A stretch of 58,008 bases of DNA, filler included, from an uncultured Myxococcia bacterium (lineage in GTDB: Bacteria > CAZTWC01): the NCBI GenBank assembly GCA_964617105.1. It is 3 parts of 3 records of this genome, joined end to end, with 100 filler letters (N's around TTAATTAATTAA, not from the genome) between each part and the next. Parts side by side here need not be neighbours in the genome. Positions count along the whole stretch, not along the records: positions 1 to 19,557 come from CAZTWC010000038.1; 2 more parts are not named here. One strand, given 5' to 3'. The position numbers were made by a program, and so were the translations under genes. The notes under the pieces were generated by a model that was not told where the DNA came from, did not search any database, and worked only from the letters and a program-made list of their open reading frames with translations. Positions 1-19,557 of this stretch are shown here, piece by piece. How positions within the stretch are numbered: the first letter of the stretch is position 1; each line of letters begins with the position of its first letter.

Positions 1-2
1 AA

Positions 3-1040
3 CAGGCGGAAGCAATTTTTCGTCAAACCGGCAACAGCACTATCCTGTTTGTGGATGAGATCCACCGCTTCAACAAAGCTCAACAGGATGCCTTTTTACC
101 CTTTGTGGAGCGGGGTGAAATAATATTAATTGGTGCGACTACAGAGAATCCCTCTTTTGAGATCATTACCCCCCTGTTGTCCAGGCTGCAAATTTTTCGG
201 CTGGAACAATTAACCGAAGAAGATATCGGGCAGATTCTTAAAAATGCCCTGGATTCATCCACAGGGTACAACGGTCAATATCCTCAAAACCAGGAGGTGA
301 TCTCCTTTATCATCTCCAGATCTGGAGGCGATGGCCGCCGCGCCTTGATGATGATGGAAATAGTGATTAGGGAATTAGGCGATAATCAGGCTGACCAAGA
401 GAAATTGGAACAAATATTCTCCTCCACCTCCTTTTGGTATGACAAGCGGGGAGATCAACATTTCAATCTAATCTCCGCCCTGCATAAAAGTCTGCGCAAC
501 AGTGATCACCAGGCCTCCCTTTACTGGTTGGCCAGAATGTTGACCGCTGGAGAAGACCCTCTCTATATTGCCAGACGCATGGTGCGTTTTGCCAGTGAAG
601 ATGTGGGGCTGGCTGATCCACAAGCGCTCCAGGTGGCCATGGCTGCTAAAGATTCGGTTCACTTTTTAGGAATGCCGGAGGGTAACCTGGCCCTGGCCCA
701 GGCGGCAGTCTATCTTGCCACCGCGCCTAAGAGCAATGCTCTCTACTTTGCCTATAAAAAAATTGAAAAGGATTTGAAAAAAGGGAAAGCTTTTCCCCCG
801 CCTCTGCATATCTGTAACGCCCCCACTTCGCTGATGAAAAAAGAGGGGTATGGCAAAGGTTACCAATATGCACACAATCTAAAAGAGAAGGTGGCCAATA
901 TGGAATGCCTGCCATCTCAATTATCGGGGACCGTCTATTATCAACCCGGCCCAATGGGATTTGAAAAGAGTATTGCCGCCCGAATAGACTATTGGCAGCG
1001 AATGAAAGATGGGCTGCATAAAGAGCAAGATGACCAATAG
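3..1040 (+). CDS. rarA: Replication-associated recombination protein A (RarA/MgsA AAA+ ATPase), 5'-truncated by window edge
   Basis: Walker B region ILFVDEIHRFNKAQQD, GATTENP, ISALHKSLR, ASEDVGLADP, GYQYAH; frame is open back to position 3. Confidence 0.95.
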   Translation, partial: QAEAIFRQTGNSTILFVDEIHRFNKAQQDAFLPFVERGEIILIGATTENPSFEIITPLLSRLQIFRLEQLTEEDIGQILKNALDSSTGYNGQYPQNQEVISFIISRSGGDGRRALMMMEIVIRELGDNQADQEKLEQIFSSTSFWYDKRGDQHFNLISALHKSLRNSDHQASLYWLARMLTAGEDPLYIARRMVRFASEDVGLADPQALQVAMAAKDSVHFLGMPEGNLALAQAAVYLATAPKSNALYFAYKKIEKDLKKGKAFPPPLHICNAPTSLMKKEGYGKGYQYAHNLKEKVANMECLPSQLSGTVYYQPGPMGFEKSIAARIDYWQRMKDGLHKEQDDQ

Positions 1041-1049
1041 TATCAACAA

Positions 1050-1967
1050 CTAGCCAATAATCGAAGTCAAAGCCTCTTGCAGAAGATATGAGCATCCCTG
1101 GCGCCGGTATTGCACTGATGAGCGGATATCGTCAATGGGGGTGGCTTCCAGCGCCACCTGGTGGGCGGCCTGGGTAATTAGTTCCTGGGTCAAAGAGGAG
1201 CCGGCCAGCATCTTTTCGGTTTCAGGCGCCCTGATTACGGTGGGGGCCACTGCTCCCAGGGCGATTCTGGCCTCAACTATCCGGGCCTGGCCTTTATCAT
1301 TATCATCTCGTTCTATTCTGGTCCACAAAGCCAAAGAAACTTTGGAGATGGCCAGGGCAGCTCTCTGTCCCAGCCGTAAAAAACGATGAAACGTTTCCTG
1401 GCCCTTCCGGGCCGGAGTTTTATCCGTCATCTGACCTACCCGACCAAGAGGGGTGAAATTGACTCTGGTGAGTAGTTCGTCATCCTCAACTATCGACTGG
1501 CCAGGGCCGGTAAAAAAATCTTCTATGGCCACCTGCCGTTCTCCCTGACTGCTCGATCTCAAAATTACCGAAGCTGCCAAGGTATATAGAGGCGGAATTA
1601 GATCGCCGGCTGGTGAGGCGTTGGCCAGATTTCCCCCCAGGGTGCCGCGGTTGCGAATTTGGGGTGAACCAATCAGAGCCGCTGCTTCACATAGGCCTGG
1701 TGCATGTTGGGCCAGAAGGGGCGAGCCGGCAATCTGGCTGTGAGTGGTCAGAGCGCCCATACTGATAAGACCATTCTGAAGGGAGATCCCCTTCAACTCC
1801 TCTAAGGAAACAATGTTAATAAACTCCAGCCCCAGACGGGGAGTATCTTTAAACCTTACCAGTAAATCGGTGCCACCAGCCAGGATAAAGGCCTGGTTTC
1901 TCTTTTCAGCCATTCGTACCAGACACTTGTCCAGGCTTTTGGGAGTATAAGTTATGGGATCTATCAT
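1050..1967 (-). CDS. Xanthine dehydrogenase-family FAD-binding subunit (CoxM/XdhB-like)
   Basis: LAGGTDL, SPQIRNRGTLGGNLANASPAGD, PIDDIRSS motifs; clustered with Mo and Fe-S subunits. Confidence 0.93.
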   Translation of the reverse strand: MIDPITYTPKSLDKCLVRMAEKRNQAFILAGGTDLLVRFKDTPRLGLEFINIVSLEELKGISLQNGLISMGALTTHSQIAGSPLLAQHAPGLCEAAALIGSPQIRNRGTLGGNLANASPAGDLIPPLYTLAASVILRSSSQGERQVAIEDFFTGPGQSIVEDDELLTRVNFTPLGRVGQMTDKTPARKGQETFHRFLRLGQRAALAISKVSLALWTRIERDDNDKGQARIVEARIALGAVAPTVIRAPETEKMLAGSSLTQELITQAAHQVALEATPIDDIRSSVQYRRQGCSYLLQEALTSIIG

Positions 1968-1975
1968 ACTGTTCT

Positions 1976-2761
1976 CTAATTTTTATTGAGTATATCTATC
2001 ATTTTAGCCATTATACTCACCGCAATCTCAAAAGGAGTCTTGGATTTGATGGGCAAACCCATGGGCGAGTCTATCCTGGCTAACAAAGAATCATCCACTC
2101 CTTGCTGGCTGAATTTTTGGAAAATTTTATCCCGCTTCCGCTTGGAAGATATCATCCCCAGGTAGTTGTAGGGCTTTTCCACCAAATTGCGCAACACTAC
2201 CTCATCATGGGCATGGCCATAGGTCATAATAGCCAAAAAATCCCGGGGACTGGTCTGCAAATCCTGCGAAATCTGCTCAAAATCCCCCAGCATCACCTGG
2301 GCTCCGGGAAAATTATTTTGGTTGGCCCACTCAGGGCGATGATCAACCACCAGGCATCTAAATCCCTGCTTAATAGCCAGGGATGCCAGTTCCCGGGACA
2401 CATGACCGGCGCCAAAAATAACCAGGCGTTGGGCAGAAAGGAGCGGTTCGATAAAAATGGTCATTTTACCGCCGCACAACATCCCTATCCCTTTCCCATC
2501 TTCTCCCCCGGCTCCCTCTTCGAAAATTTCAAACTCTTTTAGGCAGGGTTTTCCCTCTTGCAAAGCCGATACCGCCTCTTTAATAGTCAGCAACTCCACC
2601 TTGCCGCCGCCTATGGTACCCCGGATCTGTCCTTCCGGGTCAACCAGCATGTGAGAACCCGTCCCTCGCGGAGTTGAACCCTGGGCATTTACCACGGTAA
2701 CCAGAGCCACATCCAAATTTTGCTGCAAATAGTTACTTAGATCATCAATAATTTCTCGCAT
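1976..2761 (-). CDS. xdhC: XdhC/CoxI-family molybdenum cofactor insertion accessory protein
   Basis: GSTPR, GTIGGG, GMLCGG, IFGAGHV, YLGMISS, SPMGL, TPFEIAVSI. Confidence 0.92.
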   Translation of the reverse strand: MREIIDDLSNYLQQNLDVALVTVVNAQGSTPRGTGSHMLVDPEGQIRGTIGGGKVELLTIKEAVSALQEGKPCLKEFEIFEEGAGGEDGKGIGMLCGGKMTIFIEPLLSAQRLVIFGAGHVSRELASLAIKQGFRCLVVDHRPEWANQNNFPGAQVMLGDFEQISQDLQTSPRDFLAIMTYGHAHDEVVLRNLVEKPYNYLGMISSKRKRDKIFQKFSQQGVDDSLLARIDSPMGLPIKSKTPFEIAVSIMAKMIDILNKN

Positions 2762-2765
2762 AGTA

Positions 2766-3218
2766 TTATCCTTTCACTTGTTCTGCTGCCTCCATCACCC
2801 TTTGATACCCGGTGCAGCGGCATAAATTACCGGAGATGGCAGTGGCCACCTCAAGCCGGTCAGGGTGGGGATTCTGTATAAATAGGGCTTTTAAGGAAAT
2901 CACCAATCCGGGAGTGCAAAAGCCACACTGAACCGCTCCCTGGTCAATAAAAGCCTGTTGAAGCACATCCAGTTTTTCGCCATTACTTATCCCCTCGATA
3001 GTGATAATCTCTGCCCCCTCCACCTGGCTGGCCATCACCAGACAGGAGTTTACCGCCAGACTATTAATAAGCACTGTGCAGGCTCCACACTCCCCTTTTC
3101 CACATCCCTCTTTGGTGCCAATCAAGCCAAACTTCTGGCGCAATAGATCCACCAACCGCAAGTCATACTCCAACTCCACTACCTTTTGCTCACCGTTTAT
3201 GCTAAAATTTATTTCCAA
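2766..3218 (-). CDS. Xanthine dehydrogenase-family 2x[2Fe-2S] subunit
   Basis: GTKEGCGKGECGACTV, VNSC, QCGFCTPG, GNLCRCTGY; TTG start. Confidence 0.95.
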   Translation of the reverse strand: MEINFSINGEQKVVELEYDLRLVDLLRQKFGLIGTKEGCGKGECGACTVLINSLAVNSCLVMASQVEGAEIITIEGISNGEKLDVLQQAFIDQGAVQCGFCTPGLVISLKALFIQNPHPDRLEVATAISGNLCRCTGYQRVMEAAEQVKG

Positions 3219-3253
3219 TTTTTATCTCAACTTTCGATCTAACCAAGAACTAA

Positions 3254-5581
3254 TTACTCTTCATTTAAATTGGCCAGAGCGGCCAGCATTCTCTCCGGGG
3301 TGGCCGGGATGGTGGTCAGCCTGACGCCGGTAGCGTGATAAATGGCATTGGTAATAGCAGGCGCTACTCCCATCAAAGGTTGTTCACCAAAACCTTTGGC
3401 CCCGTAAGGCCCCTGTTCAAAAGCACTTTCTACTATCAGCGGCTCCACCTGTGGCGCATCCAAAGATGATGGGATTATATAGGTAGAAAAATTGGTATTT
3501 TGCATCTCTCCCGCCGGATTGTGCAAAATCTCCTCCATAGTGCCGTACCCAGCACCTTGAACTGTGCCCCCCTGAATCTGCGCCTCCACCTGGTCTGGAT
3601 TTATGGCCTTACCTACATCGTGGGCAGCAATAACTTTTATTACCTTTACTTCGCCGCTTTGGGTATTTACCTCAACTTCAGCGATATTGGTAGCCCAGGC
3701 ATAAGTCATGTAAGCCTTGCCCCGGCCAGTTTCAGCATTCCAGTCCATTGACGGCACTTTGAACCAGCCGTGTCCTGACAACTGCCGTTTCTTTTCAGCA
3801 CAGCCTTTTATCACCTGGCTGATTTTTATCCCTGGTTGCCTACTATCTTTAAAAACCATCTCCTGTCCCCGGATCTCCAACTCCTCTATAGCCACCCCGC
3901 CCAACATTATTGCTCCCTCCAGAAAAAGGGAATGTCGGATGGGCCGGCAAGCATCGATAAGAGCATTGCCCGATACGGTGGTGGCGCGGGAAGCTACTGT
4001 GGGACCGCTGTCTGGAACACGGGAGGTATCAGCCGGATCCATCCTTACATTGACATAATCTATCCCCAACTGCTGGGCTACTATTTGGCTTAACACCGTG
4101 GTCATCCCCTGGCCCATTTCGGTGGTGCCCACCGCAAAACTGGCGCTGCTGTCAAACTCTAACTGCACATATGCCCCCGCCCGGGAGAGCTTATGTCCTG
4201 CTGATCCAAGCCCAACTCCATAATAAATAGTGGAAATTCCTAATCCTTTTTGAATCCATTTCGGTTTTTTTTTGGTTTTATCGCAACTGTTATCCTGTCT
4301 GGCATTGTCCTGTTCAAAGAGCCGACGCCGCTGATTCCAATCCGACTTCTCCAGCGCCTTTTCTAAAGTTTCGCCAATGCCTACGCTGCTTTCCAGTTGC
4401 TGGCCAGACCCGGTAAAGTCGCCTGATTTGAGGATATTAAGCCGTCTGATCTCAGCCGGATCCATCCCCAACTTAGCAGCCAACATATCCATGGCCGACT
4501 CCACGGCAAACAGGATTTGGGGAGAGCCAAAACCGCGAAAAGCGCCGCAAGGCACTTTGTTGGTGGCAACAGCATAGGATTTAAGCCACACATTGGGTAC
4601 CTGGTAAGATCCAAAAGCGTGGATAGTTCCTCGCCAGAGCACCACCGGACTTAGGGTGCTGTAGGCGCCGGCATCCAAAATGTAGGTCACCTGAGCGGCC
4701 AGCAATTTTCCCTGCCCATCGGCAGCCAGGCGGTAACGAATATGACCTGGATGGCGTTTACTCATGGATACCATATCCTCTTCCCGGGTATAGATCAATT
4801 TCACCGGCCGGCCGGTGTGCCAGGCTGCCAACGCCGCCTGGGACGCCACTAGCGAAGGAACATCCTCCTTACCGCCAAAAGCGCCGCCCGTAGTGGTCTG
4901 TATCACCTTAACCCGGCTCAATTTCATCCCCAAAACCTCGGCAACCCCTTCCCGCACATAAAAGGGACACTGCATAGAGCCATAAATCTCTATTCCGGTG
5001 GCGCCAGGCACCGCCACCATTCCCTGAGGCTCCAGGTAGGCATGCTCTTGGTATGGGGTGTGAAATTCGGCCTGCACTACGGCAGCCGCCTCCCCAAAAG
5101 CGCTATCCACATCACCGTATTGGTTGTGATATTTACTAAAAATATTATCCTGGCCGTAAATTTTGGGGGCATCTTTTGCCATGCCCAGCTCGGCATCCAA
5201 CACCGCCTCCATAGGTTTACACCGCACCACCACCTTTTGAGCGGCAAAACGCGCCATATCCCTGGTGGTAGCCGCTACCACCGCCACCGGCTCACCACAA
5301 TATCTGACCTCTTTTTCTGCCAGGCAGGGTTGATCGCGCAGTACAACCGGCACAATATTGCACCCAGGTATATCAACGGCGGTAAAAACCCCTTTTACCT
5401 GAGATAATTCATCAAGAGCCGAACTATCCAGACCCTCTATAACTCCCCGGGCCACCGGGCTTCTTACCACGGCAGCATATAATTGCCCGCTAAAAGAGAT
5501 ATCATCAATAAACAAAGCCTGGCCCCGCACTTTGGCTTTGGCATCGGTTCTGGGCAACCGGGATCCCACAAATTCGGACAT
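3254..5581 (-). CDS. Xanthine dehydrogenase-family molybdopterin-binding subunit
   Basis: QEHAYLEP, GGAFGGK, AFRGFG, EMGQG, TVASR, AKGFGE (catalytic Glu retained); substrate not determinable from motifs. Confidence 0.93.
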   Translation of the reverse strand: MSEFVGSRLPRTDAKAKVRGQALFIDDISFSGQLYAAVVRSPVARGVIEGLDSSALDELSQVKGVFTAVDIPGCNIVPVVLRDQPCLAEKEVRYCGEPVAVVAATTRDMARFAAQKVVVRCKPMEAVLDAELGMAKDAPKIYGQDNIFSKYHNQYGDVDSAFGEAAAVVQAEFHTPYQEHAYLEPQGMVAVPGATGIEIYGSMQCPFYVREGVAEVLGMKLSRVKVIQTTTGGAFGGKEDVPSLVASQAALAAWHTGRPVKLIYTREEDMVSMSKRHPGHIRYRLAADGQGKLLAAQVTYILDAGAYSTLSPVVLWRGTIHAFGSYQVPNVWLKSYAVATNKVPCGAFRGFGSPQILFAVESAMDMLAAKLGMDPAEIRRLNILKSGDFTGSGQQLESSVGIGETLEKALEKSDWNQRRRLFEQDNARQDNSCDKTKKKPKWIQKGLGISTIYYGVGLGSAGHKLSRAGAYVQLEFDSSASFAVGTTEMGQGMTTVLSQIVAQQLGIDYVNVRMDPADTSRVPDSGPTVASRATTVSGNALIDACRPIRHSLFLEGAIMLGGVAIEELEIRGQEMVFKDSRQPGIKISQVIKGCAEKKRQLSGHGWFKVPSMDWNAETGRGKAYMTYAWATNIAEVEVNTQSGEVKVIKVIAAHDVGKAINPDQVEAQIQGGTVQGAGYGTMEEILHNPAGEMQNTNFSTYIIPSSLDAPQVEPLIVESAFEQGPYGAKGFGEQPLMGVAPAITNAIYHATGVRLTTIPATPERMLAALANLNEE

Positions 5582-5591
5582 CTTTAAACTC

Positions 5592-6920
5592 CTAAAAATT
5601 TTCCCAAATTTCAGTGGCCAACTCGGTGGCCCTGGCTGCCAGCCTGGGCTGGTCTATATCTATCTTTAATTGCCTATCTTTCATGAGTACTTTACCGCCA
5701 CAGATGGTGGTGTTGACAAAGGACTGAGAAAGACCAAAGGCCAGATGTCCCATAAAGGAATTACTATCAAAAGGAGTAGGGGAAAAATAATCTATTAGGA
5801 TAATATCAGCAGCATTTCCCTCTTTTAATTGCCCCAGTCCTATATCCCAATATTTATTGGCAATAACCGCGTTGTTGACCAGCAGAGTGTTCAAGGATTC
5901 ACAAAATCCCTTCGAAGGGTTGTTTTTCTCCAGGTGATGTAGCCACAGGGCCGCCCTGACCTCCTCCATCATGTTGACTGTCATGGCATCGGTGCCCAGG
6001 CCAACGCAAAGTCCCTTTTCAGTCATGCCGATAATATCGGCTATACCCACGGCGTTGTTGGTGTTGGATTGGGGATTGTGCACCACCGCACTACCGCTTT
6101 TTTGGATTAACTCCATCTCCGATTGGTCAATATGGACACAGTGGGCAGTAATCGACTTTGGTCCCAACAGGCCAAACTTATCCAGCCGCTCTACCACCCT
6201 GATGCCATAATTTTTCAGACTGTATTCCTGATCAGACAAGGCCTCTGCTGTATGGATATGGAAACCGGTATCCAACCCCTGAGCCGCCTCTCTGACGGCT
6301 TGCAGGGTTTTATCACTCAGGGTAAAGGCGGCATGTAAGCCAAAAAGCCCCCGTAAATAGGGGTCATTTTCAGTTTGACATCTACGCAAAAAATCAACAT
6401 TTTCCTGGATCCCATCCTGGGCCACCTTCTCTCCATCACGATCAGAAACCTCGTAACATAGGCTAGCCCTTATCCCCACCTCTTTGACCGCTTTGGCGAT
6501 AATATTCAGAGAACCACGGACCGCTCCCGGGCTGGCGTGGTGGTCGATAATAGTGGTGGTTCCTCTGCTGACGGCATCGATTAAGGGCAGCATGGCGCTG
6601 ACATAACAACCTTCCAGAGTTAGCAATTTATCCAATTTCCACCAGAGGTTATTTAGCACTTCCACAAAGTTGGTAGATGGTTGAATTTTATAGAGCCCCC
6701 GGGCCAGGCTGCTGTAAAAATGCATGTGAGCGTTGATAAAACCGGGCATAACCACTTTACCCCCGGCATCTATAATCTGTTGGTAGGAGCCGGTAAAATC
6801 GGAATCTGGTCTAATTTTACTGATTTTATCTTCCTCAATCAACAGAGAATGCCCGTTAAGCACTTGATTTTCCAGACCTAAGGTGACAATAGTACCGTTT
6901 TTTATTAAAATGTCAGTCAT
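5592..6920 (-). CDS. ssnA: SsnA-family putative aminohydrolase (amidohydrolase superfamily)
   Basis: PGFINAHMHFYSSLARG, WWKLD, GTTTIIDHHASP, GLHAAFTLSD, HNPQSNTNNAVG, LGTD. Confidence 0.9.
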   Translation of the reverse strand: MTDILIKNGTIVTLGLENQVLNGHSLLIEEDKISKIRPDSDFTGSYQQIIDAGGKVVMPGFINAHMHFYSSLARGLYKIQPSTNFVEVLNNLWWKLDKLLTLEGCYVSAMLPLIDAVSRGTTTIIDHHASPGAVRGSLNIIAKAVKEVGIRASLCYEVSDRDGEKVAQDGIQENVDFLRRCQTENDPYLRGLFGLHAAFTLSDKTLQAVREAAQGLDTGFHIHTAEALSDQEYSLKNYGIRVVERLDKFGLLGPKSITAHCVHIDQSEMELIQKSGSAVVHNPQSNTNNAVGIADIIGMTEKGLCVGLGTDAMTVNMMEEVRAALWLHHLEKNNPSKGFCESLNTLLVNNAVIANKYWDIGLGQLKEGNAADIILIDYFSPTPFDSNSFMGHLAFGLSQSFVNTTICGGKVLMKDRQLKIDIDQPRLAARATELATEIWENF

Positions 6921-6984
6921 TATTCTTTATCCTTCCTGATTCGGTTCTACTATTTCACGGGAACTCATAAATTGATTAACAGGC

Positions 6985-9505
6985 TCAATCCTCCCGTAAG
7001 GCCGCTTTTTCAGCAGCATCTCTCTGGCGCATATAGAGAGCGCCAGACACACATTTTTTTACGCATATAGAGCAGCCAATGCATCGGGAAGGATCGGTTT
7101 TAGGTATTTTATCATTATCCAAAGATACCGCCAAATAGGGACAGCGGGTGCAGTTGCCGCAAGAGATGCATAGATCTCCATTAACACAGGATACTTTTTT
7201 GTCTGCCGGTAACTCCATAAAGTCAGCAATGGGGTTGGGTAAGGCTCTACCTATCAACTGGGATACCGACTCAATGCCCCGCTGCTGGAGAAGGTGACTG
7301 AGGCCGGAGCACAACTCGTGGATAATATCATACCCATATTTCATGGCCAAAGTGCAAAACTGCACGGTGCTGGCGCCCAAAGCCAGGAAATTGGCCGCAG
7401 CCAGATAATCCATGGGACCGCCGTTTCCGGAAATGGTCACGCCCAGAGGGGCGGCATTGGCCAGGGTCATGTAACTGATGGGGGTAATGCCGTCACCGCT
7501 CATCCCAACCACGATCCCCGGGTCCCACCCAGGTTGACCGCTATCGCCAGCTCCCTTGTCATCTCTACGAAAGGCCAGGCTGGGAAAAGAGTTAGCCAGG
7601 GTAACACCGGCCTTTTTATCAGGAAAACCGGCCAGGGTTTGGTTAACCGCCATTATAATCGGCTTAATGGAGGTCACCGCCCCGGTCATCTTGAACAGTT
7701 TAGGTACCTGGGGTTGGGAGGCTTCCATTATCCAGCCAATAATTTTGGCAGTCAAAGCAGCATTCTGGGAGACAATATCTCCTTCGGTGCCGTCCCCGCC
7801 CTGAGGACAAGAGAGACTGTATTCAATACTCATGGCGCCGGCGTCTTCCAACATTCTGGTATTCTCTTGCCAGATTTGTCTATCGGCCTGGTCGTCACCG
7901 GTCACCGGACCGCCGGTAGACGCTATGGTCAGCCGGTCTGGGTATTTTTCCACCAACTGTTCCACCTCCCGGCAAATCCGATCTAGAGGATGTCCTGAGA
8001 CATTATCGCAATTAGCATAGGTCAGCCGGTNNNNNNNNNNGAATATGGATGGGTAATCCGTTAAAAGCGGTTTTCATAACCCCACCGGCCCAACCGGCCT
8101 GATAGGCCTTCTCCATCTGCTCCAAGCCGTCAGTGGGCGGAGCGGCAGAAAGTAAAAAGGGCGAAATCAGAGCCCGGCCGAAATAATCGGTTTCCAAATC
8201 CACCGGAACCTGGTGGTAACCGGGTATGGTAAAAGTGCTTTTAATATTGCTATCTTCTGGTTTGGAAGTATCTGGGGCAGTTTGCTGCAAAGCGGCGGAC
8301 AGTTTGATGGCCGCATTTTTACCAGAGGCCACCGCCTCCACCACAGTAGTGGGGCCATTGTGGCAGTCACCGGCATAGACTATATGTTCCTTGACGCTAT
8401 CAGATTGTTTAAGAGGCATATTTCTACTGCCAATAGCCACGATTATCAGGTCAATATCATCTCGCACCTGCACAGTGCCCTCTTGGTCACTAATTTTAGT
8501 CAAATCGAAACTATCACCATCTAACTCAATCCTTTTTAATTTGAGTCGGGAGATCTTATCATTGCTACTCTCTATGGAAACTAACTTGCAACGTCCGGTA
8601 ATCTCCACCCCGGCCAGGATAATCTCTTCCCGTTCATCCTGGGTCAAAGGCATCTCACCCGCTTTTTCCAAACAAACCATCTCCACTGAAGAGCACCCTA
8701 TACTGCTGGCAATCAACGCACAGTCAGCAGCGGTAGCGCCGCCGCCAATCACCATAACTTTACCTGAAGCCTGGTCTGTGCCCAGATGTTTTTTTGGCCG
8801 GGCTAAAAAATCGAGTCCGCTCACAGTAGTCTCTTCACCGGGGATGCCCAATTTTATTGGCGCCATTAGGCCGGTGGCCGCCACCACTCCATTATAGCCC
8901 TGGGTAAAAAAATCACTTAGATCTTGTATAGCCTGTTGAGTAAATAGGTTTATCCCATCCAGGGAGAGAATAAACTCCAAATCTCTGTCCAACACCTCTT
9001 GGGGAAGCCTTTGGGAGGGGATAATATTGCACATCCCGCCAGCGGTTTCTCCCTGTTCATAAATATCAACTTGAAAGCCCAACTGAACCAGGCTGGCAGC
9101 AGCCGCCAGGCCGGCCGGGCCAGCCCCCGCTATGGCCACTTTTTGACCGTTTTTCTTCCTGGCCATAAAATTGGGAGTCTGTCCTATTTGGCTGGCTTTT
9201 TCAATGATAGTCATTTGCACCGATGGGATATCCACCGGCTGGTTAAGTTTCTTATACACACAGGCGCTCATGCAGTGTTGGTCGGGACATACCGCCCCGC
9301 ACACTCCTCCCAGAGGATTGCAACTTAAAATCATGGCCGCCGCCCTCTTCAGGTCAGCCGGCTCCATTTTTCTGGCCGCCATGATAAAATCAGCCGGACT
9401 GCAGTGAGCCGGACATTTATCCTGGCACGGTTTCTCCTGGCAATATTCACACTTCTCCATCTCCTGACGCAATTGTGCATCGCTTAATAGACCTTTTTTC
9501 AACAT
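6985..9505 (-). CDS. Single-chain dihydropyrimidine dehydrogenase-like flavo-Fe-S oxidoreductase (PreT-like + PreA-like + 2x[4Fe-4S]); one gene interrupted by the 10-N gap at 8031-8040
   Basis: N-terminal CEYC/PCQDKCP/CGAVCP Fe-S motifs and GAGPAG, GGGATAADC nucleotide motifs run into the FMN-barrel start SPFLLSAAPP...GGVMKT. The downstream frame is open up to the gap (RLTYANCDNVSGHPLDRICREVEQ), then SLSCP, GNGG and two ferredoxin-type Cys clusters. Confidence 0.85.
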
Positions 9506-9520
9506 AATTTTTTTGTCACC

Positions 9521-11338
9521 TTATTTTCTTTCTTGAACGCCATCCAATAGGCCAAAAGCGTTGGTATCCAATTCGGCGGCATTGGCTTCATCAGTATCCA
9601 AATGCATGGCCAGTTTGGCTTTGTCGCTTACTCGAACGTGAACTCCGCCAAATATAACTTCCCGCTCTCCCGGAATCTTGATCCGTACCACATCCTGGTT
9701 ACACAAACTGTATTTCTTGGCGTCTTCCGAAGTCATATGGATATGTCGTAAGGGACAAATAACCCCCTTTTCCATTTTTATCCTGTCCTCGTTGCCCTCC
9801 AACACAATACCGGGAGTATTGTCCAGTTCGCCGGAAAGCCTTAGCGGAGCATCGATACCAAGCCTGCACTCTTCGGTTCTGGTTATCTCCACCTGAGTTT
9901 TTTCCCGCACCGGCCCAATGATGCGGACATGAGGAATCATATCACGGGGGCCAATCAAGGTTACAGTTTCCTCGGCTACAAACTGTCCTGGTTGAGAAAT
10001 ATCCCTGGTTTTGGTAAGAGTATAACCTTGGCCAAAGAGTTTTTCCAAATCTTCCTGGCAGAGGTGGATGTGTTGATCAGCGGTGATAATCGGCACTTTA
10101 AACTCCTCTTGAACCCTGTCCTCGCTGGCCTGCTGATATCCAACCCGGGTGGCGGTTTCCCTGGCAATCATCAAATCTTCTCTGGTTTTGACCACCAAAA
10201 CCTTGGTCTTGGATGAATCGCTGTGAATCTCAAATATCCCACTGTTATTCGGATTCCGAAAAATATTTTTCATCTCATCCAGGGCCACTCCCATCAAATC
10301 TAATCCCTGACAAGTCCTGGCCCGGATTCCCTTGGAGTTTTCGCCAATACCGCCGGTAAAAATCAAAATATCCAGATGACCCAAAACCGCGGCATAGGCG
10401 CCGATATATTTTTTCAACCGGTAGCAAAAAATCTGGATAGCCAGCAGGGCCTGGTAATTACCATTGTTGGCCTCCTCCATAACCTGCCGTATATCGTTAC
10501 TTAAACCGGATATTCCAGTCAATCCGCTCTGTTTGTTTAACAGTTTGTCGGTTTCGTCTATTGACAGTCCCAACTGCTTTTGTAGAACCAGCACCAGGGC
10601 GGGATCGATATCTCCGCAGCGGGTTCCCATAATCAGTCCCTCCAAAGGTGTCAAACCCATGCTGGTGTCGATGGAGCGTCCCTTTTCGATAGCACAGATA
10701 CTGGCGCCATTGCCCAAATGACAACTTATTATATTCAGCTCGTTCATCTCCTTGCCCAGATATTCGGCGGCCTTGTTAGCCACATAGGCGTGTGAAGTGC
10801 CGTGAAAACCGTAGCGGCGAAAGCCATGATCCCGGTATAAGTTGTAGGGAATGCCGTAAACATAGGCCCTCGCTGGCATAGAGGAATGAAAGGCGGTATC
10901 AAAAACAGCCACATGAGGAATATTGGGCATCAATTCCTGGCAAGCATCAATACCAGCCAGATTGATGGGATTGTGCAAAGGAGCCAGGTCAATACACTTT
11001 TTAATTTGCTCTTTCACTTCCGGGGTAATCACTCTGGAACTGGTCATCTTTTCACCGCCGTGCACTACCCGATGGCCCACTGCCTGAATCTCCTCCAGGT
11101 TGCTCAGAACGGGATTATCCTTCGCCACCAGGTTATTCAGGGCAAGTCTAACCGCTGCCAGGTGGTCTTTTACCTCTTTCACTTCCTTAACGGTCTGAAC
11201 ATCTTTCATAAAGGTATGGGCGCTGTCTTTCTGGCCGATATTTTCCACCAACCCTCCAGCCAGTTTTTCCCCTTCCTGGACATTGATGAGATCATATTTC
11301 AACGATGAACTTCCGCAATTAATTATTAGTATTATCAT
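9521..11338 (-). CDS. ackA: Acetate/propionate kinase fused to a C-terminal PduL-type phosphotransacylase
   Basis: AckA motifs NCGSSSLK, HRVVHGG, APLHN, FDTAFH, YGFHGTSH, CHLGNGAS, TGGIGEN. Last ~191 aa (9524-10096) carry PduL motifs HIHL, SQPGQF, QVEI, RHIHM, MHLDTDEANAA. AAGGAG RBS precedes ATG 11338. Confidence 0.92.
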   Translation of the reverse strand: MIILIINCGSSSLKYDLINVQEGEKLAGGLVENIGQKDSAHTFMKDVQTVKEVKEVKDHLAAVRLALNNLVAKDNPVLSNLEEIQAVGHRVVHGGEKMTSSRVITPEVKEQIKKCIDLAPLHNPINLAGIDACQELMPNIPHVAVFDTAFHSSMPARAYVYGIPYNLYRDHGFRRYGFHGTSHAYVANKAAEYLGKEMNELNIISCHLGNGASICAIEKGRSIDTSMGLTPLEGLIMGTRCGDIDPALVLVLQKQLGLSIDETDKLLNKQSGLTGISGLSNDIRQVMEEANNGNYQALLAIQIFCYRLKKYIGAYAAVLGHLDILIFTGGIGENSKGIRARTCQGLDLMGVALDEMKNIFRNPNNSGIFEIHSDSSKTKVLVVKTREDLMIARETATRVGYQQASEDRVQEEFKVPIITADQHIHLCQEDLEKLFGQGYTLTKTRDISQPGQFVAEETVTLIGPRDMIPHVRIIGPVREKTQVEITRTEECRLGIDAPLRLSGELDNTPGIVLEGNEDRIKMEKGVICPLRHIHMTSEDAKKYSLCNQDVVRIKIPGEREVIFGGVHVRVSDKAKLAMHLDTDEANAAELDTNAFGLLDGVQERK

Positions 11339-12416
11339 GGGCAACTCCTTTTATGTTTTCTATGAACCATTTTTCAAACTCTGGATTAAAATAGATCACT
11401 CTCTGTTTCTTGAATTCCCTGGTACTCAGACATATCCTATAATTGGTTTGGCCCGAAGCCGCAGTCATATGCTCCACGATCGCCTCCAGATCTTCCCTGC
11501 TCCTGGCGTGAATCATAGTGTAAAGTTGGTAGGGCCACTGTGGGAATGAATTTCTTATATAACAATGACTTACCGGTTTATAAGAGGAAAACTTGCGCCC
11601 CAGATTGTCCAGATCTTTATCATCCACCTGCCAGGTCACCATGCCGTTAAATAGAAAACCACTTTTCCGGTGGTCCAATATGGCAGAAATGCGGCGCAAA
11701 ATCCCCTTTTCCTGCATCACTTGAAGCCGCTTAACCAACTCATCCTGGCTGATACCAAGGGTAGTGGCCGCCTCTTTAAAGGGATAGCGCACAAGTTGTA
11801 TCTCTTTTTGGACTTGACAGATTATCTGCCGGTCCAACTGGTCATAACTACGTTTGATAGCATCATCTCTGACCCCCCCTTGATCCTGGTTAATTTCAAG
11901 ATCCTGATCTTTCTCCCCTTTCTCCCGGTTCTTAAGATCTAGCACCACCCCGATTTTAAAACGTTTTATGGTTTTGAACAGAAGCAGATCTTGGCAGAGG
12001 GGCTGAGCACGAAAATACTCAGTTACCGCTTCAAAAGAAAGACCCGGAGGGACTGCCAGAGTAAACCACAATTGATAGGGAACATCCCTCTGGTAATTGT
12101 GGCTGACACCAGGGCAACGATTTATAATATGAGACATCTCCTCTTCCTGGCCGGGTTTCACTTTCATGGCCAGCAGGGAGCTAGAAAAGCCCATGGCGGT
12201 GGTGTCGAATATGGCAGAAAATTTACGGATAATGCCCGCTTTTTTAAAATACTCTATGGCTTGCCACACATCTTCCACCGACAGATTCAATTGACGGGCA
12301 ATTACCTGGAAAAGATGTTTATCAATGGGCTGAGGTCGTTGAAGATGGTCGAGAATTCTGACCTCTTTTTGAGTCAACATTTGCCGTCGAGTGAGCATCG
12401 GATTAGAAGTTGCCAT
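11319..12416 (-). CDS. Fused siroheme decarboxylase AhbA/AhbB (NirDL-like, two Lrp/AsnC-like halves)
   Basis: First half VSHNYQRD..LWFTL..FKIGV; second half VSHCYIRN..WPYQLYTMIHAR..STREFKK. Confidence 0.88.
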   Translation of the reverse strand: MATSNPMLTRRQMLTQKEVRILDHLQRPQPIDKHLFQVIARQLNLSVEDVWQAIEYFKKAGIIRKFSAIFDTTAMGFSSSLLAMKVKPGQEEEMSHIINRCPGVSHNYQRDVPYQLWFTLAVPPGLSFEAVTEYFRAQPLCQDLLLFKTIKRFKIGVVLDLKNREKGEKDQDLEINQDQGGVRDDAIKRSYDQLDRQIICQVQKEIQLVRYPFKEAATTLGISQDELVKRLQVMQEKGILRRISAILDHRKSGFLFNGMVTWQVDDKDLDNLGRKFSSYKPVSHCYIRNSFPQWPYQLYTMIHARSREDLEAIVEHMTAASGQTNYRICLSTREFKKQRVIYFNPEFEKWFIENIKGVAHDNTNN

Positions 12417-12446
12417 TTACTTGCTCGAAAAAGAACCAGATTTGGT

Positions 12447-13400
12447 TTAGTTATTTAAAATTTTATCAATTTTTTCCGGTGCCCATGATTGCCCGGTAAG
12501 ACGGCAATAGGATAAACAACGCTCCTGGATCTGCTCCCGGTTTAGAGAGGTTATCCCCTCCAGGCTAAAATGTTCCACATTGAAAGAAGCCAATACTGTA
12601 CCAAAAATAGTGGCCAATTGAATATCCTGGAAAGAGAGGGCCTGTTGTCGTTCATATAAAAGGGACAAAACCCCCATGGTGCCACCAGCAAAAGTATCTC
12701 CCGCTCCGGTGGGATCCACCACCTCTTGCAAAGGATAGGCTGGAGCGATATATAGGTAATCCTTATACTTTATGATCAGTCCATATTCCCCTCGCTTAAC
12801 AACCAATATTTCCGGTCCCATCTGCTGAACCTTTTTAATGGCCCTGAAGATATTGTCTACATTGCTCAACATCCTCACTTCCCCATCGTTGATAACCAAC
12901 ATATTTACCTGTTTTAAAACTCGGGATAATTCTTTAGGGGTGCCCTGTATCCAAAAATTCATGGTATCAATGGCCACAAATTTAGCGCCTCCGGCCTGTT
13001 TCACTACTGTTTCTTGTAGAGAGGGGTGAATGTTGGCCAAAAACAACACCGGTATCTGACTATCAACCTGGGAGAGACGGGGTTTAAAATCTTGAAAAAC
13101 ATTTAATTCAGTGGTAATAGTTTCCGCCTGGTTCATATCGCCACTGTATTTGCCTTCCCAAAAAAAGGTTTTTCCTTCAGCCAGTACTTCCAAACTATCC
13201 AGGTTAACCCCTTTTGAACTTAACAAATCAATATGTTTTTTAGGAAAATCTTCCCCTACCACCGCCACCACCTTAGACTGAGTAAAATAGGAGGAGGCCA
13301 CTGAAAAATAGGAGGCAGAACCTCCCAGGCACCTCTCCCGTTTACCAAAAGGTGTTTCAACCGTATCCAGGGCTACCGAACCTACAACTAATAAGGGCAT
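12447..13400 (-). CDS. PfkB/ribokinase-family sugar or nucleoside kinase
   Basis: VGSVALD, LGGSASY, DTMNFWI, VKRGEYG, DPTGAGDTFAGG; start taken at MPLLVVG. Confidence 0.9.
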   Translation of the reverse strand: MPLLVVGSVALDTVETPFGKRERCLGGSASYFSVASSYFTQSKVVAVVGEDFPKKHIDLLSSKGVNLDSLEVLAEGKTFFWEGKYSGDMNQAETITTELNVFQDFKPRLSQVDSQIPVLFLANIHPSLQETVVKQAGGAKFVAIDTMNFWIQGTPKELSRVLKQVNMLVINDGEVRMLSNVDNIFRAIKKVQQMGPEILVVKRGEYGLIIKYKDYLYIAPAYPLQEVVDPTGAGDTFAGGTMGVLSLLYERQQALSFQDIQLATIFGTVLASFNVEHFSLEGITSLNREQIQERCLSYCRLTGQSWAPEKIDKILNN

Positions 13401-13560
13401 GGTTTTTTCTCCTATAACTAAGACAACCGCGACAACCGCCAGATTTTCCATATTACATTTTATTATTTATTAAACTAGTTAATTTAAACAGGGAAATTTA
13501 TCAAAGTCAAATTAATTCAGACTGATACAGCAGGCTGGTTGCGGATCTGAGCCTTTCAAC

Positions 13561-13589
13561 TTGACAATTGTGGAATAAGGGGATATTTT
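13561..13589 (+). promoter_or_regulatory. Putative sigma70 promoter for the cytochrome/porin genes
   Basis: TTGACA (13561-66), 17-bp spacer, TATTTT (13584-89); same -10 hexamer as the putative groES promoter. Confidence 0.5.
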
Positions 13590-13596
13590 ACCTCCT

Positions 13597-14496
13597 ATGA
13601 ATAATAGAGATGTTACAATCTACCGGATAATAAAATCAGGCTGGAAAATAGGCTTAAAAGCCCTTCTGTTTCTACTTTTTGTTACTTTTCTGTCTGTATG
13701 CGGCGATTTGCGCAACTTTCAGGATAAATCTGCCAATCGTGGAGAAAACGACTGCGCCTATTGCCATTACAACATCATGCCTCACGAGCCCCAGCCCTCC
13801 CATTGCGGAAAGGACTTGTGCCAGACCGATTGCCGGCCCAACTATTCCCATTGCGGTGATGATTGCCCCGATTGTCCCTGTGATTGCAAAAAAGAGGACG
13901 ACCTTCACAAAACCCATCTGGTCGAAGGTAATTTAACTACCCGTCTCCAGTGTCAAGACTGCCACCTTACACCTAAGCGCTGGGATGATATCGGACATTT
14001 GGATTCTCCTGCTCCAGCAGAGGTGGTATTCAGTTCAAAAGCCTCACGAGGCGGTCTAAATCCGACTTATACCAATAAAACCTGCAACAATATCTACTGT
14101 CACGGCGCTTCTATTAAAGGAGGGGGCAATGGATCGCAGATGAAATGGCAGGACTCTAAAAGTTTGCAATGCTCCTCCTGTCACGGCAATCCACCATCGG
14201 GACACCTGGAAAAAGTCAATAATTGCCAGGCTTGTCATCGCCTCAGTTTTCAGAACAACGACCTGGACAAAAAACGGCACATAAACGGCCGGGTGGAGAT
14301 GGTTCCTTTTGATTTTGAAACCGACACTCCCAACTGTGGAACCTGTCACAGTCTACCTCCCAATAACCAGCATACACCCGCCACAAAAGATTGTTCCCAG
14401 TGCCACCCCAAATATCCGCTCTACGACCCTGGCAAAGAGGATAAATCCAGCCAGTGGTCCACCCACATGAACGGAAAAATAGAGATAGTAAAATGA
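13597..14496 (+). CDS. Multiheme c-type cytochrome, CxxxxCH/CxxCH (Geobacter-type) domain; probable lipoprotein
   Basis: Six CxxCH (CAYCH, CQDCH, CSSCH, CQACH, CGTCH, CSQCH) plus CNNIYCH; HING/HMNG motifs; hydrophobic stretch ending LSVC. Confidence 0.9.
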   Translation: MNNRDVTIYRIIKSGWKIGLKALLFLLFVTFLSVCGDLRNFQDKSANRGENDCAYCHYNIMPHEPQPSHCGKDLCQTDCRPNYSHCGDDCPDCPCDCKKEDDLHKTHLVEGNLTTRLQCQDCHLTPKRWDDIGHLDSPAPAEVVFSSKASRGGLNPTYTNKTCNNIYCHGASIKGGGNGSQMKWQDSKSLQCSSCHGNPPSGHLEKVNNCQACHRLSFQNNDLDKKRHINGRVEMVPFDFETDTPNCGTCHSLPPNNQHTPATKDCSQCHPKYPLYDPGKEDKSSQWSTHMNGKIEIVK

Positions 14497-15830
14497 TAAA
14501 TAGACCCCCAAATTTCGCTTCAAAAAGGCGGACCGGCTGGAAAGTTTTCTGGTCGTTTTTTCAATCTCTGGTTGCTTTGTCAATAATCCTGGCAATTTTA
14601 TCAACCTGGTATTCACAGGCCTGGAGTACGGAATTATCTGCCCAAACCACCAGTTTTTTGCAGTTCAGGGCTGAAGACTATGAAAACCAGGTGACCCACC
14701 GAATCCCTTTTTGCCAGTATCTCAATCTCTACGGAATGGATTTAGCCGGGGCCCAGGGGCTGTCAATAGCCATTGGCGGGTGGGGGATGTACGACCTTTA
14801 CCAGTGGCGAACCAAAGATCGGGCTGATGGTGATCTTAATTTTGGCTATCTGGACTACCAGTTCATTGACGGGGTCTCTCTGCGCCTGGGTAGGCAATTT
14901 ATCTACGAAAGGGCTTCCCTGGTCAAACAGGTTGATGGACTGCGGCTGCAAATTAACGGCCTGGGCGGTTTTGGACTCAGCCTGTTTGGCGGAAATGTTT
15001 CACCGCCCCGATTCGATTACAGCCACAAATTTGGCCAGGATGATTACCTGGCCGGTGGACGTCTTTACTACCGGATGTTGGACATAGGACAGTTTGGTAT
15101 CTCCGCTGCGGTAACCACAGATGAAGGTTTTGTGTCTCGCGCCGATCTGGGGGTCGACTTTTCCCTGCGCTCATATAGATATTTTAACTGGGCCGTCCTG
15201 GAGGGCAGCGCCCTTATGGATGCTCCAGGCAAGCAATTAGCAGAATTAAATACCGTTATTCATCTCTACCCCCACCAGAATTTAGTCCTGGATATGGGTG
15301 TGAATCATTCCAAAATCGGCGCTTTGCTGCCCAAAACCTCTATTTTTTCGATATTTGCCGCCGACAATTACACCAAAGCCTATTTGGCTTTGAATTATCA
15401 GGCTTTGACCTTTCTCAACACCGGCCTGGAGGCCAGTCAAAGTTTCTTTGACCATGGCGAAAACGGATATGCGGCTGGTTTCCACTCGACCCTATACCTG
15501 GATCCCAAAAAACAAGATATGTTGGGAGTTAAACTATTTCGGGTCAAAGAGAAAACCAACGCCTTTTGGCGATTACGCAGTTTCTGCCTGTTCAATTTCA
15601 TCAACACCCTGTACACCACTTTTGAGTTGGAGGGGCTGATATTCGACCATAACCTACGGAACCAGTCTTATTCCTTAAGCAGTTATGGTTCCCTGGGCGC
15701 CCGTTTAGGGCCAGTTGAGTTGGCGGGTGAAATCGGAGTTTCCTCCAATCCAATTTTTGAACGGGAACTCTACGGAATGTTAAAATTGAGCCTGAACCGA
15801 CAAGTAAACTATTCAACTGCATCAAAGTGA
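14493..15830 (+). CDS. Putative outer-membrane beta-barrel (porin of a porin-cytochrome complex)
   Basis: Signal peptide (..SQAWS), LRLGRQF..VDGL motif, alternating aromatic/aliphatic strands; overlaps both flanking cytochrome genes by 4 nt. Confidence 0.7.
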   Translation: MINRPPNFASKRRTGWKVFWSFFQSLVALSIILAILSTWYSQAWSTELSAQTTSFLQFRAEDYENQVTHRIPFCQYLNLYGMDLAGAQGLSIAIGGWGMYDLYQWRTKDRADGDLNFGYLDYQFIDGVSLRLGRQFIYERASLVKQVDGLRLQINGLGGFGLSLFGGNVSPPRFDYSHKFGQDDYLAGGRLYYRMLDIGQFGISAAVTTDEGFVSRADLGVDFSLRSYRYFNWAVLEGSALMDAPGKQLAELNTVIHLYPHQNLVLDMGVNHSKIGALLPKTSIFSIFAADNYTKAYLALNYQALTFLNTGLEASQSFFDHGENGYAAGFHSTLYLDPKKQDMLGVKLFRVKEKTNAFWRLRSFCLFNFINTLYTTFELEGLIFDHNLRNQSYSLSSYGSLGARLGPVELAGEIGVSSNPIFERELYGMLKLSLNRQVNYSTASK

Positions 15831-16903: not shown

Positions 16904-16914
16904 AAGATGCGCTG

Positions 16915-18690: not shown

Positions 18691-18965
18691 TTGGTTACTT
18701 CTTCACCAATACCATCAACAATAAATTTGTATATCGCGTTCATGGCGTCTTGACAGTCCTCACCCCTGGTTTCGATGGATATGGTTTTGTCCAGCACATT
18801 GGCGCCAATATGTAAGACGCCCATTATACTCCTGCCGTTGACTCGAATATTATCCCGGCAAAAAGTTATGTCCGATTTGTATTTGCTTACCAGGTTTACC
18901 AATTTGGATGCTGCTCGTCCATGAAGTCCAAGTTCATTGGTAATTTTAAAACTTTTCTTAACCAT
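18687..18965 (-). CDS. ptsH: HPr-family phosphocarrier
   Basis: GLHGRAAS (His15 equivalent) and GRSIMGVL (Ser46 equivalent). Confidence 0.9.
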   Translation of the reverse strand: MVKKSFKITNELGLHGRAASKLVNLVSKYKSDITFCRDNIRVNGRSIMGVLHIGANVLDKTISIETRGEDCQDAMNAIYKFIVDGIGEEVTK

Positions 18966-18992
18966 TTTATTACCTCTTTTGCTCCACGGGAA

Positions 18993-19400: not shown

Positions 19401-19557
19401 AACTAAAATCTCTGTAACAAAAGTCACCAGATCTTTAAGTGCACTAACCGCAGGTGAGCAATTAAGAATATTTCTAATTAATGTTGCTGAATTTTTTTTT
19501 GTATGAAAATTATAGTTTTCATTAAGATAACCACTGTAAATTGTATTTGACCAAAAA

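Follow-up and report, generated by a model that had tools for sequence, protein, structure and literature searches.

Reductive degradation of urate has been worked out in Escherichia coli and Clostridia by two studies published in 2025 (PMC12507026; bioRxiv 10.1101/2025.04.24.650524). According to the accessible parts of both, a homologue of xanthine dehydrogenase (XDH) converts urate to 2,8-dioxopurine, YgfK reduces this compound, SsnA opens the ring, and HyuA, YgeW or UacY, YgeY and YgeX act thereafter. Reduction by YgfK was detected by one of the two studies only with SsnA coupling and by the other with NADPH, and the E. coli enzyme is described as choosing 2,8-dioxopurine rather than either of the two isomers of this compound (bioRxiv 10.1101/2025.04.24.650524). 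For C. difficile, the PydA homologue UacX (UniProt Q181U4) has been proposed in place of YgfK in the text available to us (PMC12507026). So far the ring-reducing step has been met as YgfK and, by inference, as UacX. Here we describe a gene on a DNA stretch of 58,008 nucleotides from an uncultured Myxococcia bacterium (assembly GCA_964617105.1; the whole stretch is called the window) which belongs to a family that would add another. It encodes a flavo-iron-sulfur protein with the architecture of dihydropyrimidine dehydrogenase (DPD) and, judged by its neighbours and relatives, is probably an NAD(P)H-dependent reductase of 2,8-dioxopurine (yanthine, isoxanthine) in the reductive urate pathway.

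Our literature searches disclosed no paper describing a reductase of DPD domain order for the 2,8-dioxopurine step, and the terms "fused", "fusion" and "dihydropyrimidine" are absent from the accessible text of the two pathway papers. A survey of 2020 counted 29 out of 3,419 bacterial PydA candidates that carry Pyr_redox_2 in the same polypeptide, which its accessible text does not study further (PMC7332683).

A single gene with the domain order of DPD

The gene and its parts were assigned as follows (FAD, flavin adenine dinucleotide; FMN, flavin mononucleotide; DHOD, dihydroorotate dehydrogenase).

6985..9505, minus strand: whole reductase gene; predicted 844 amino acids with the true gap counted; single-chain DPD-type flavo-Fe-S enzyme (single-chain homologues with 825-842 amino acids and 64-70% identity)
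9188..9484, minus strand: N-terminal 2x[4Fe-4S] domain, residues 8-106 (PF14691 Fer4_20, 61.8 bits, cut-off 25.8; aligns with pig DPD from residue 73 and with NfnB)
8321..9142, minus strand: FAD and NAD(P)H binding domains, residues 122-395 (PF07992 Pyr_redox_2, 68.2 bits; matches to GltD, NfnB and DPD)
8041..8200, minus strand: start of the FMN barrel, residues 436-488, with the lysine of VMKTAF (PreA profile NF006183, positions 3-46; alignment with relatives)
8031..8040, no strand: assembly gap, 10 N in place of 24 nt; nine codons including the flanking partial codons
7243..8030, minus strand: rest of the FMN barrel, DHOD/DPD type (PreA profile positions 72-403, 164 bits, cut-off 335; pig DPD 607-848, E 1.7e-21)
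7804..7824, minus strand: catalytic loop EYSLSCP; acid Cys kept, Ser at the position of DPD Asn668 (alignment to 1gt8, read on the DNA)
7588..7593, minus strand: N-S at the position of DPD N736-T737 (alignment to 1gt8, read on the DNA)
7021..7185, minus strand: C-terminal 2x[4Fe-4S] ferredoxin domain, the last ~60 residues (hits of Fer4_9, Fer4_6 and Fer4_10; aligns to pig DPD 914-996)

In the assembly the gene is interrupted by ten Ns, which divide it into two predicted open reading frames (ORFs). The N-terminal part extends from an ATG at 9505 to 8041 and comprises 488 open codons, reaching right up to the Ns. The C-terminal part has 347 open codons in the frame that begins at 8028 and ends with the stop codon at 6985, while the other two frames on this side contain many stops. 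With a gap of 10 nt as written (2521 nt in total) both halves are out of phase. Alignment of the two parts with eight full-length relatives revealed exactly nine residues missing between PIHI and RLTYANCDN, and we therefore predicted a true gap of 24 nt. To check the gap, public contigs were compared over positions 7600-8500. Two of them, originating from two runs of one study, crossed it (X3 record 6, 394 nt; X4 record 11, 1077 nt). Both contained 14 extra letters behind 8040 and no other differences, whereas the contigs of two further runs (X1 and X2) ended at 8010 and 8051, short of crossing. Ten plus 14 letters give 24 nt, so that the gene amounts to 1465 + 24 + 1046 = 2535 nt or 845 codons in frame. 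The 14 visible letters, which are those covered by this reading at a depth of ~3 in runs that may include the source sample (the ten under the Ns being outside it), read P-A-E-Y-M on the coding strand, correspond to P[SA]EYM of the homologues and show neither a stop nor a new start. Moreover, a single alignment from residue 60 or before to residue 800 or beyond covered the protein in 78 of 80 related loci. These 80 loci, to which all following counts of related loci refer, were kept out of at least 561; all are from metagenome-assembled genomes, and many phyla are represented. Both predicted ORFs belong to one gene, about 844 codons long, as the original prediction had proposed, and the FMN barrel indeed starts before the gap, the PreA profile being matched from residue 436 (profile positions 3-46).

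Pfam and NCBIfam searches and structure alignments yielded the order 2x[4Fe-4S]/FAD/NAD(P)H, FMN barrel, 2x[4Fe-4S], which is the five-domain layout of DPD. Among solved structures the N-terminal part matched NfnB, GltD and residues 73-363 of pig DPD, the C-terminal part residues 607-848 and 914-996 of pig DPD. Structure modelling was performed on P0003, a relative with 70% identity. Its AlphaFold model had a mean predicted local distance difference test score of 75 and a predicted template modelling (TM) score of 0.71, with the C-terminal ferredoxin domain and the active-site loops being weak. A search with this model gave pig DPD chains at every listed rank from 1 to 27 with TM scores of 0.70-0.72 over ~975 columns, while NfnB and GltD matched only the N-terminal half. 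The domain order claimed before is thus borne out by domain profiles, by alignments with pig DPD and by the full-length fold match of a relative. None of the NCBIfam models claimed the protein: the PreA model gave 164 bits with the C-terminal part and 201 bits with full-length P0003 (cut-off 335), and the YgfK model TIGR03315 gave 146 bits (cut-off 835), its match being confined to the GltD region. A seven-residue insert (GAGDSGQ-like; about 7498-7518 on the minus strand, residues ~171-177 of the C-terminal part) is absent from all aligned relatives and sits in a loop of low model confidence (P0003 residues 642-669).

The loop around the catalytic cysteine reads IEYSLSCPQG instead of LELNLSCPHG in pig DPD (1gt8). 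The cysteine (C671 of the pig enzyme) is kept; N668, which we take to be the substrate-binding asparagine of pig DPD, is replaced by serine. The equivalents of N609 (yaNcdnvs) and N736 were retained, while T737 is changed to serine (laNS vs atNT). An asparagine occupies the loop position in E. coli PreA (ECNFSCP) and in PreA (ELNFSCP) and PyrD (EVNISCP) of the same genome. Of the enzymes that reduce uracil, pig DPD and E. coli PreA were inspected for the altered loop; both possess asparagine, not serine, in favour of the original prediction. Within the related loci, the loop was EYSLSCP in 79 cases and EFSLSCP in one, serine thus being present in 80/80, while the later motif was NT in 72 and NS in eight. 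The loci had been retrieved with the patterns TY[AG]NCDNV and CPQGGDGT, so that the portion of the loop beside CP was partly selected for. We concluded that the change from asparagine to serine is a trait of the whole family, hereafter termed the EYSLSCP family. Both motif changes reported earlier exist in this gene, but the second, NS, is not family-wide and was discarded as a signature. The other residues of the barrel that correspond to the FMN lysine, the catalytic cysteine and the substrate asparagines are invariant in the family.

Residues at the end of beta-2 of a Rossmann fold are related to the use of NADH or NADPH. In the second Rossmann fold of the reductase this site reads CLE, and (A/C)LE in the family; YgfK and NfnB have YRR, E. 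coli PreT has ARE and PreT of the same genome SLE. By these rules, the motif suggests a preference for NADH over NADPH.

Relatives, gene neighbourhood and the genome's own pyrimidine reductase

A search with the C-terminal part (E<=1e-10) retrieved at least 2,342 long proteins, of which the best 120 were mostly 820-842 amino acids long (some were shorter or partial) and 64-70% identical; in public databases relatives are labelled "FAD-dependent oxidoreductase", "dihydropyrimidine dehydrogenase" or "PreA". By scanning one genome per species, the fused layout was confirmed in at least 561 loci. The description of the single chain as eukaryote-style therefore had to be given up, since these loci and the at least 2,342 long proteins share it, and bacterial candidates had already been counted, as far as the accessible text goes, in PMC7332683. 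Stand-alone members consisting of barrel and ferredoxin domain were also found (P0145, P0239 and P0162; 403-438 amino acids); they start exactly at the barrel, and their contigs measure between 30 kb and 1.5 Mb. The EYSLSCP family seems to exist split as well as fused, like PreT/PreA versus DPD.

Neighbouring genes of the related loci were determined by tblastn with the window proteins and by de novo clustering of neighbour ORFs. An SsnA homologue was present in 68/80 loci, always downstream and on the same strand, in 65 of them within 1 kb and mostly at a distance of 4-200 bp. Six of the 12 loci lacking ssnA contained less than 450 bp of downstream DNA; hence ssnA is located directly downstream in 65 of the 74 informative loci. 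XDH genes occurred in 40 loci, YgeY in 23, YgeW in 19 and HyuA in 17, representatives of the latter three scoring above their NCBIfam cut-offs (594, 639 and 437 bits, respectively). One or more of YgeY, YgeW and HyuA accompanied the reductase in 30 loci, and at least one pathway neighbour in 73. At the place where YgeX is expected, two uncharacterised pyridoxal phosphate (PLP) enzymes were observed, one threonine-synthase-like (18 loci; e.g., L045:15206-16375), the other CysK-like with ~483 amino acids (17 loci; e.g., L077:6768-8219).

In all ten Chloroflexota loci of the set (L080, L081, L085, L087, L089, L090, L092, L093, L097 and L099) the gene immediately downstream of the fused reductase encodes an SsnA homologue, and four of these homologues that were checked gave 532-544 bits (cut-off 444). 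Eight loci also contained an F420-type LLM oxidoreductase. Chloroflexota have been said to be without YgfK and UacX and to possess only the F420 enzyme, at least in the accessible part of PMC12507026. PF01180 reached the Pfam cut-off in only five of 13 tested family members and in none of three members from Anaerolineales. The published absence is probably explained by this domain falling below threshold on the EYSLSCP family.

The genome has its own complete reductive pyrimidine-degradation cluster on another contig (C61; L018 5675-15607). It contains split PreT-like and PreA genes, the latter reaching 550 bits with the PreA model (cut-off 335), a dihydropyrimidinase (578 bits), a nitrilase-type amidase, an aminotransferase and a methylmalonate-semialdehyde dehydrogenase; an alcohol dehydrogenase and an OTC-like carbamoyltransferase were additionally found there. 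A PyrD/PyrK pair resides on contig C88. Since PreT and PreA are encoded separately within this Pyd cluster, uracil reduction is already covered and the fused enzyme is a third paralogue, not the uracil reductase of the cell. Together with the synteny of the family with ssnA and XDH genes, this indicates that its substrate is probably neither uracil nor thymine, which agrees with the suspicion raised from the altered loop.

For phylogenetic analysis, a quick IQ-TREE was calculated from 69 barrel-plus-ferredoxin segments, i.e., 59 of 149 representatives of 50% clusters and ten added rows, and rooted on PyrD of the same genome. Representatives shorter than 370 amino acids or without a recognisable loop were left out, and the loop column was kept in the alignment. 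All 36 rows of the Ser type lay together on the same side of a branch with an SH-aLRT value of 98. The EYSLSCP family formed a clade (100) whose stem is long (1.5 substitutions per site), while PreA of E. coli and of the same genome were placed in a separate clade of the Asn type (100). The nearest Ser-type relatives (P0285, P0288, P0289, P0292, P0297, P0299 and P0310) are 33-39% identical, exhibit the loop ECSFSCPQG(T/S)(L/M)G and occur in fused (830-861 amino acids) and in split form. A search of Bacillota with P0289 showed the group, in the four genomes with the best matches (L173-L176), as split pairs of PreT-like and PreA-like genes. All four genomes carry SsnA elsewhere.

Only positions 1-19557 of the window derive from one contig (C38), the remainder from other contigs of the 489-contig draft (96.5% complete), so that linkage beyond 19557 would be unsafe to claim. 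Downstream of the reductase, this contig contains the following genes.

5592..6920, minus strand: ssnA (amidohydrolase), predicted ring-opening partner, 64 bp downstream of the reductase (NF005540, 541.8 bits, cut-off 444; 34% identity to E. coli SsnA)
3254..5581, minus strand: XDH-family molybdopterin (Mo) subunit (pucD/xdhB-type profiles, 470-502 bits, all below cut-offs; 27% to E. coli XdhD, 30% to E. coli XdhA)
2766..3218, minus strand: XDH [2Fe-2S] subunit (NF043084, 177.6 bits, below the cut-off of 217)
1976..2761, minus strand: XdhC-type maturation factor (NF045664, 258 bits, below the cut-off of 350)
1050..1967, minus strand: XDH FAD-binding subunit, YgfM/XdhB role (NF043083, 191.5 bits, below the cut-off of 310)

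On the minus strand the complete order is PfkB-type kinase, AhbA-AhbB, AckA-PduL, reductase, ssnA, XDH Mo subunit, [2Fe-2S] subunit, XdhC-like factor and FAD subunit, adjacent genes being 4-64 bp apart or overlapping slightly. The core reductase-ssnA-XDH mirrors ygfK-ssnA-ygfM-xdhD of E. coli; an SsnA above its curated cut-off and four XDH-family genes are as expected of a reductive urate cluster. None of HyuA, YgeW/UacY, YgeY or YgeX is encoded within the window. Upstream, an ORF for 607 amino acids (9521-11344, minus strand) ends 15 bp before the reductase start. Its product combines an acetate/propionate kinase (TIGR00016, 504 bits) with a phosphotransacylase of the PduL type (NF011652, 237 bits) in one chain. 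This AckA-PduL fusion could link the pyruvate/acetyl-CoA end of the pathway to ATP formation. Its start is overlapped by 26 bp by an ORF for 365 amino acids (11319-12416, minus strand) comprising both siroheme decarboxylase halves, AhbA (224 bits) and AhbB (217 bits), each above its cut-off. AckA-PduL, AhbAB and PfkB were rejected as conserved partners (0/80 related loci). Three divergent ORFs follow on the plus strand (13597-16903), two of them with multihaem c-type cytochrome motifs (CxxCH domain, triheme c7-type), fitting a metal- or sulfur-respiring host of the deltaproteobacterial type. GroEL, located on another contig of the window, is closest to proteins from Thermodesulfobacteriota/Deltaproteobacteria (~78%). 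The reductase gene was present in public runs of two studies, which are metagenomes of marine or seawater origin. A scan for promoters and terminators gave 28 and 25 sites (17.6 and 14.5 expected), none of which lay at telling places.

Predicted function and competing explanations

The reductase most likely takes the role of YgfK or UacX, with a DPD layout of which the papers searched give no description. According to the mechanism we propose, the neighbouring XDH-family Mo enzyme would convert urate to 2,8-dioxopurine by removing its 6-oxo group. The FAD site of the reductase would accept two electrons from NAD(P)H, of which the motif described above suggests NADH. Electrons would then cross the four [4Fe-4S] clusters, probably by way of a head-to-tail dimer as in DPD, and reach the FMN of the barrel. 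A hydride may be transferred from FMN to C6 of the purine while the loop cysteine protonates C5, the chemistry being that of uracil reduction. Hydrolysis of the reduced ring by SsnA would draw the unfavourable reduction forward. The change from asparagine to serine and family-specific residues around the loop (QGGDGT, TYANCDNVSGHP) may adapt the pyrimidine pocket to a bicyclic substrate.

Several observations weigh against this assignment. The function is deduced from context. The barrels of YgfK and of the EYSLSCP family did not reveal significant similarity (BLAST E 0.22; hhalign probability 0.5%, E 0.11), so that a function shared with YgfK would be analogous or very distantly related. The Mo subunit is no closer to XdhD than to XdhA and thus does not fix the regiochemistry of the XDH nor, as a consequence, the substrate of the reductase. 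Half of the related loci (40/80) are without XDH genes in the fetched flanks. As to the later steps in the same genome, YgeY is present but divided between the ends of two contigs, with chemotaxis genes as neighbours, a second hydantoinase gave 327 bits (cut-off 393), YgeW-like proteins gave only 230-250 bits (453-500 required) and YgeX was not found in the 489-contig draft (45 bits). Finally, ssnA and hyuA were not contained in the fetched flanks of the ECSFSCP genes in the four Bacillota genomes; as this sister group also has serine, the residue alone does not mark a purine substrate.

The same observations could be explained by a reductase that is likewise coupled to SsnA but acts on another ring, such as xanthine, 6,8-dioxopurine, urate or an 8-oxoguanine-derived compound, with the product entering a partly different route in environmental anaerobes. 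The slightly closer relationship of the Mo subunit to XdhA, the failure to find YgeX, the ThrC-like (18/80) and CysK-like (17/80) PLP enzymes in its place, the loci without XDH nearby and a barrel unrelated in sequence to that of YgfK would all suit this explanation. We nevertheless consider it unlikely. YgeY, YgeW and HyuA, which handle what arises from 2,8-dioxopurine by ring opening, are repeatedly encoded next to family members, the SsnA encoded here passes the SsnA equivalog cut-off, and, in the accessible part of bioRxiv 10.1101/2025.04.24.650524, E. coli YgfK chose 2,8-dioxopurine over two isomers.

Considerably less probable is an ordinary, fused dihydropyrimidine dehydrogenase for uracil or thymine that lies beside purine genes by chance. 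Such an enzyme would account for the complete DPD fold and cofactor set, for the catalytic cysteine and two of three asparagines being retained and for the public labels of the relatives. However, the PreA scores (164-201 bits) are far from the cut-off of 335, whereas PreA of the same genome attains 550. The loop asparagine of pig DPD, E. coli PreA and the genome's own PreA and PyrD is serine in this protein and in all related loci, and canonical PreT/PreA are provided by the Pyd cluster. The conserved partner is SsnA rather than dihydropyrimidinase and ureidopropionase, and the family forms a separate clade on a long stem.

We regard it as very improbable that the protein has no substrate of its own and serves as NAD(P)H-driven electron-input module of the neighbouring XDH-family enzyme. 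Its gene abuts those of the Mo enzyme, and Fe-S/FAD modules of the GltD type are often electron donors (relatives of AegA and YgfT were among the profile matches), but the XDH of the window has an FAD subunit, the catalytic cysteine, FMN lysine and substrate asparagines of the barrel are invariant, and the tightest partner is SsnA (68/80) and not XDH (40/80). That the two ORFs are separate genes for PreT-like and PreA-like subunits, or a broken gene, the fusion being an artefact of the gap, can practically be dismissed: although stand-alone members exist on long contigs (P0145, 405 amino acids; P0239, 438 amino acids) and the ten letters under the Ns are not displayed in the bridging contigs, 53 residues of the barrel precede the gap and the remainder follows it, the bridging contigs provide an in-frame join of 24 nt whose visible part resembles the homologues, and one alignment spans the protein in nearly all related loci.

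Thus, we favour a 2,8-dioxopurine reductase. In a wider sense, the EYSLSCP reductases are most likely a widespread, mis-annotated form of a known pathway step, their function being predicted. Going further, we put forward tentatively that the clade may be a third, unrecognised type of 2,8-dioxopurine reductase, maybe the commonest outside guts. Its origin would lie in a pyrimidine reductase of the PreT/PreA kind that underwent fusion and re-tooling of the pocket, with the replacement of asparagine by serine as a key switch of specificity. It would also fill the supposed absence of such a reductase in Chloroflexota; the published neighbourhood analysis probably missed the clade because the barrel does not score above the PF01180 threshold of Pfam.

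If the prediction is true, the pathway extends well beyond gut bacteria, as the loci originate from soils, groundwater, sediments and sea water, from Ignavibacteriota, Elusimicrobiota, Acidobacteriota, Chloroflexota, Myxococcota and other phyla. The data also suggest that the current labels "dihydropyrimidine dehydrogenase" and "FAD-dependent oxidoreductase" mislabel thousands of proteins. The family would represent a natural experiment in turning the pocket of a pyrimidine reductase to a purine and would bear on the enzymology of DPD, the enzyme that clears 5-fluorouracil. For engineered urate-degrading probiotics, an NAD(P)H-linked reductase on a single polypeptide could be a simpler part than YgfK.

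Comparison with YgfK, UacX and DPD

The reductase resembles E. coli YgfK in gene position, just upstream of ssnA with XDH-family genes after it, and in the combination of a GltD-like Fe-S/FAD/NAD module, a barrel and a ferredoxin domain; both proteins share 26% identity in their GltD parts (E 7e-25). It differs in the arrangement, which is barrel-GltD-ferredoxin in YgfK (1032 amino acids) and GltD-barrel-ferredoxin here (~844 amino acids), and in the nucleotide site, where YgfK shows the NADPH-type YRR instead of (A/C)LE. By eye, the loop of YgfK reads LSTMHGCP and has no asparagine, but a valid alignment was not obtained and nothing was drawn from it.

With UacX, which was compared by its description in the accessible text only (PMC12507026), the protein shares a PydA/PreA-type FMN barrel with ferredoxin domain, a cluster with SsnA and the same proposed job. 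UacX is described without an FAD/NAD domain and is probably ferredoxin-dependent, whereas the NAD(P)H module (Fer4_20 and Pyr_redox_2) is part of the same chain here. A search for homologues of near UacX length mostly yielded fragments of the fused EYSLSCP family. In a sample of 301 Bacillota genomes, 49 possessed SsnA, and 30 loci were returned. YgfK followed right after ssnA in 16 of them (among L104-L120), and this order, ssnA-ygfK, is the reverse of ygfK-ssnA in E. coli. A PreA-like gene near ssnA was sought in the 14 SsnA loci lacking an adjacent YgfK (up to 20 kb each) and was present in none.

Pig DPD (1gt8/1h7w) and PreT/PreA agree with the reductase in the five-domain order, the four Fe-S cluster motifs, the FMN lysine, the catalytic cysteine and the equivalents of N609 and N736; the full-length fold, judged by the model of P0003, corresponds to that of pig DPD with a TM score of 0.71. 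Differences from DPD and PreA are serine in place of Asn668, family inserts (STGGPVTGxDExD), scores below the PreA cut-off, the separate clade and SsnA as partner instead of the Pyd enzymes, i.e., dihydropyrimidinase and ureidopropionase. Furthermore, pig DPD exceeds the reductase in length by ~180 residues. Clostridial PydAc is, as far as the accessible text of PMC7332683 goes, a ferredoxin-dependent enzyme without FAD/NADPH domains that reduces uracil and is encoded in Pyd clusters. It differs in these respects from the reductase described here, but shows that the DPD family swaps electron-input modules and keeps the barrel.

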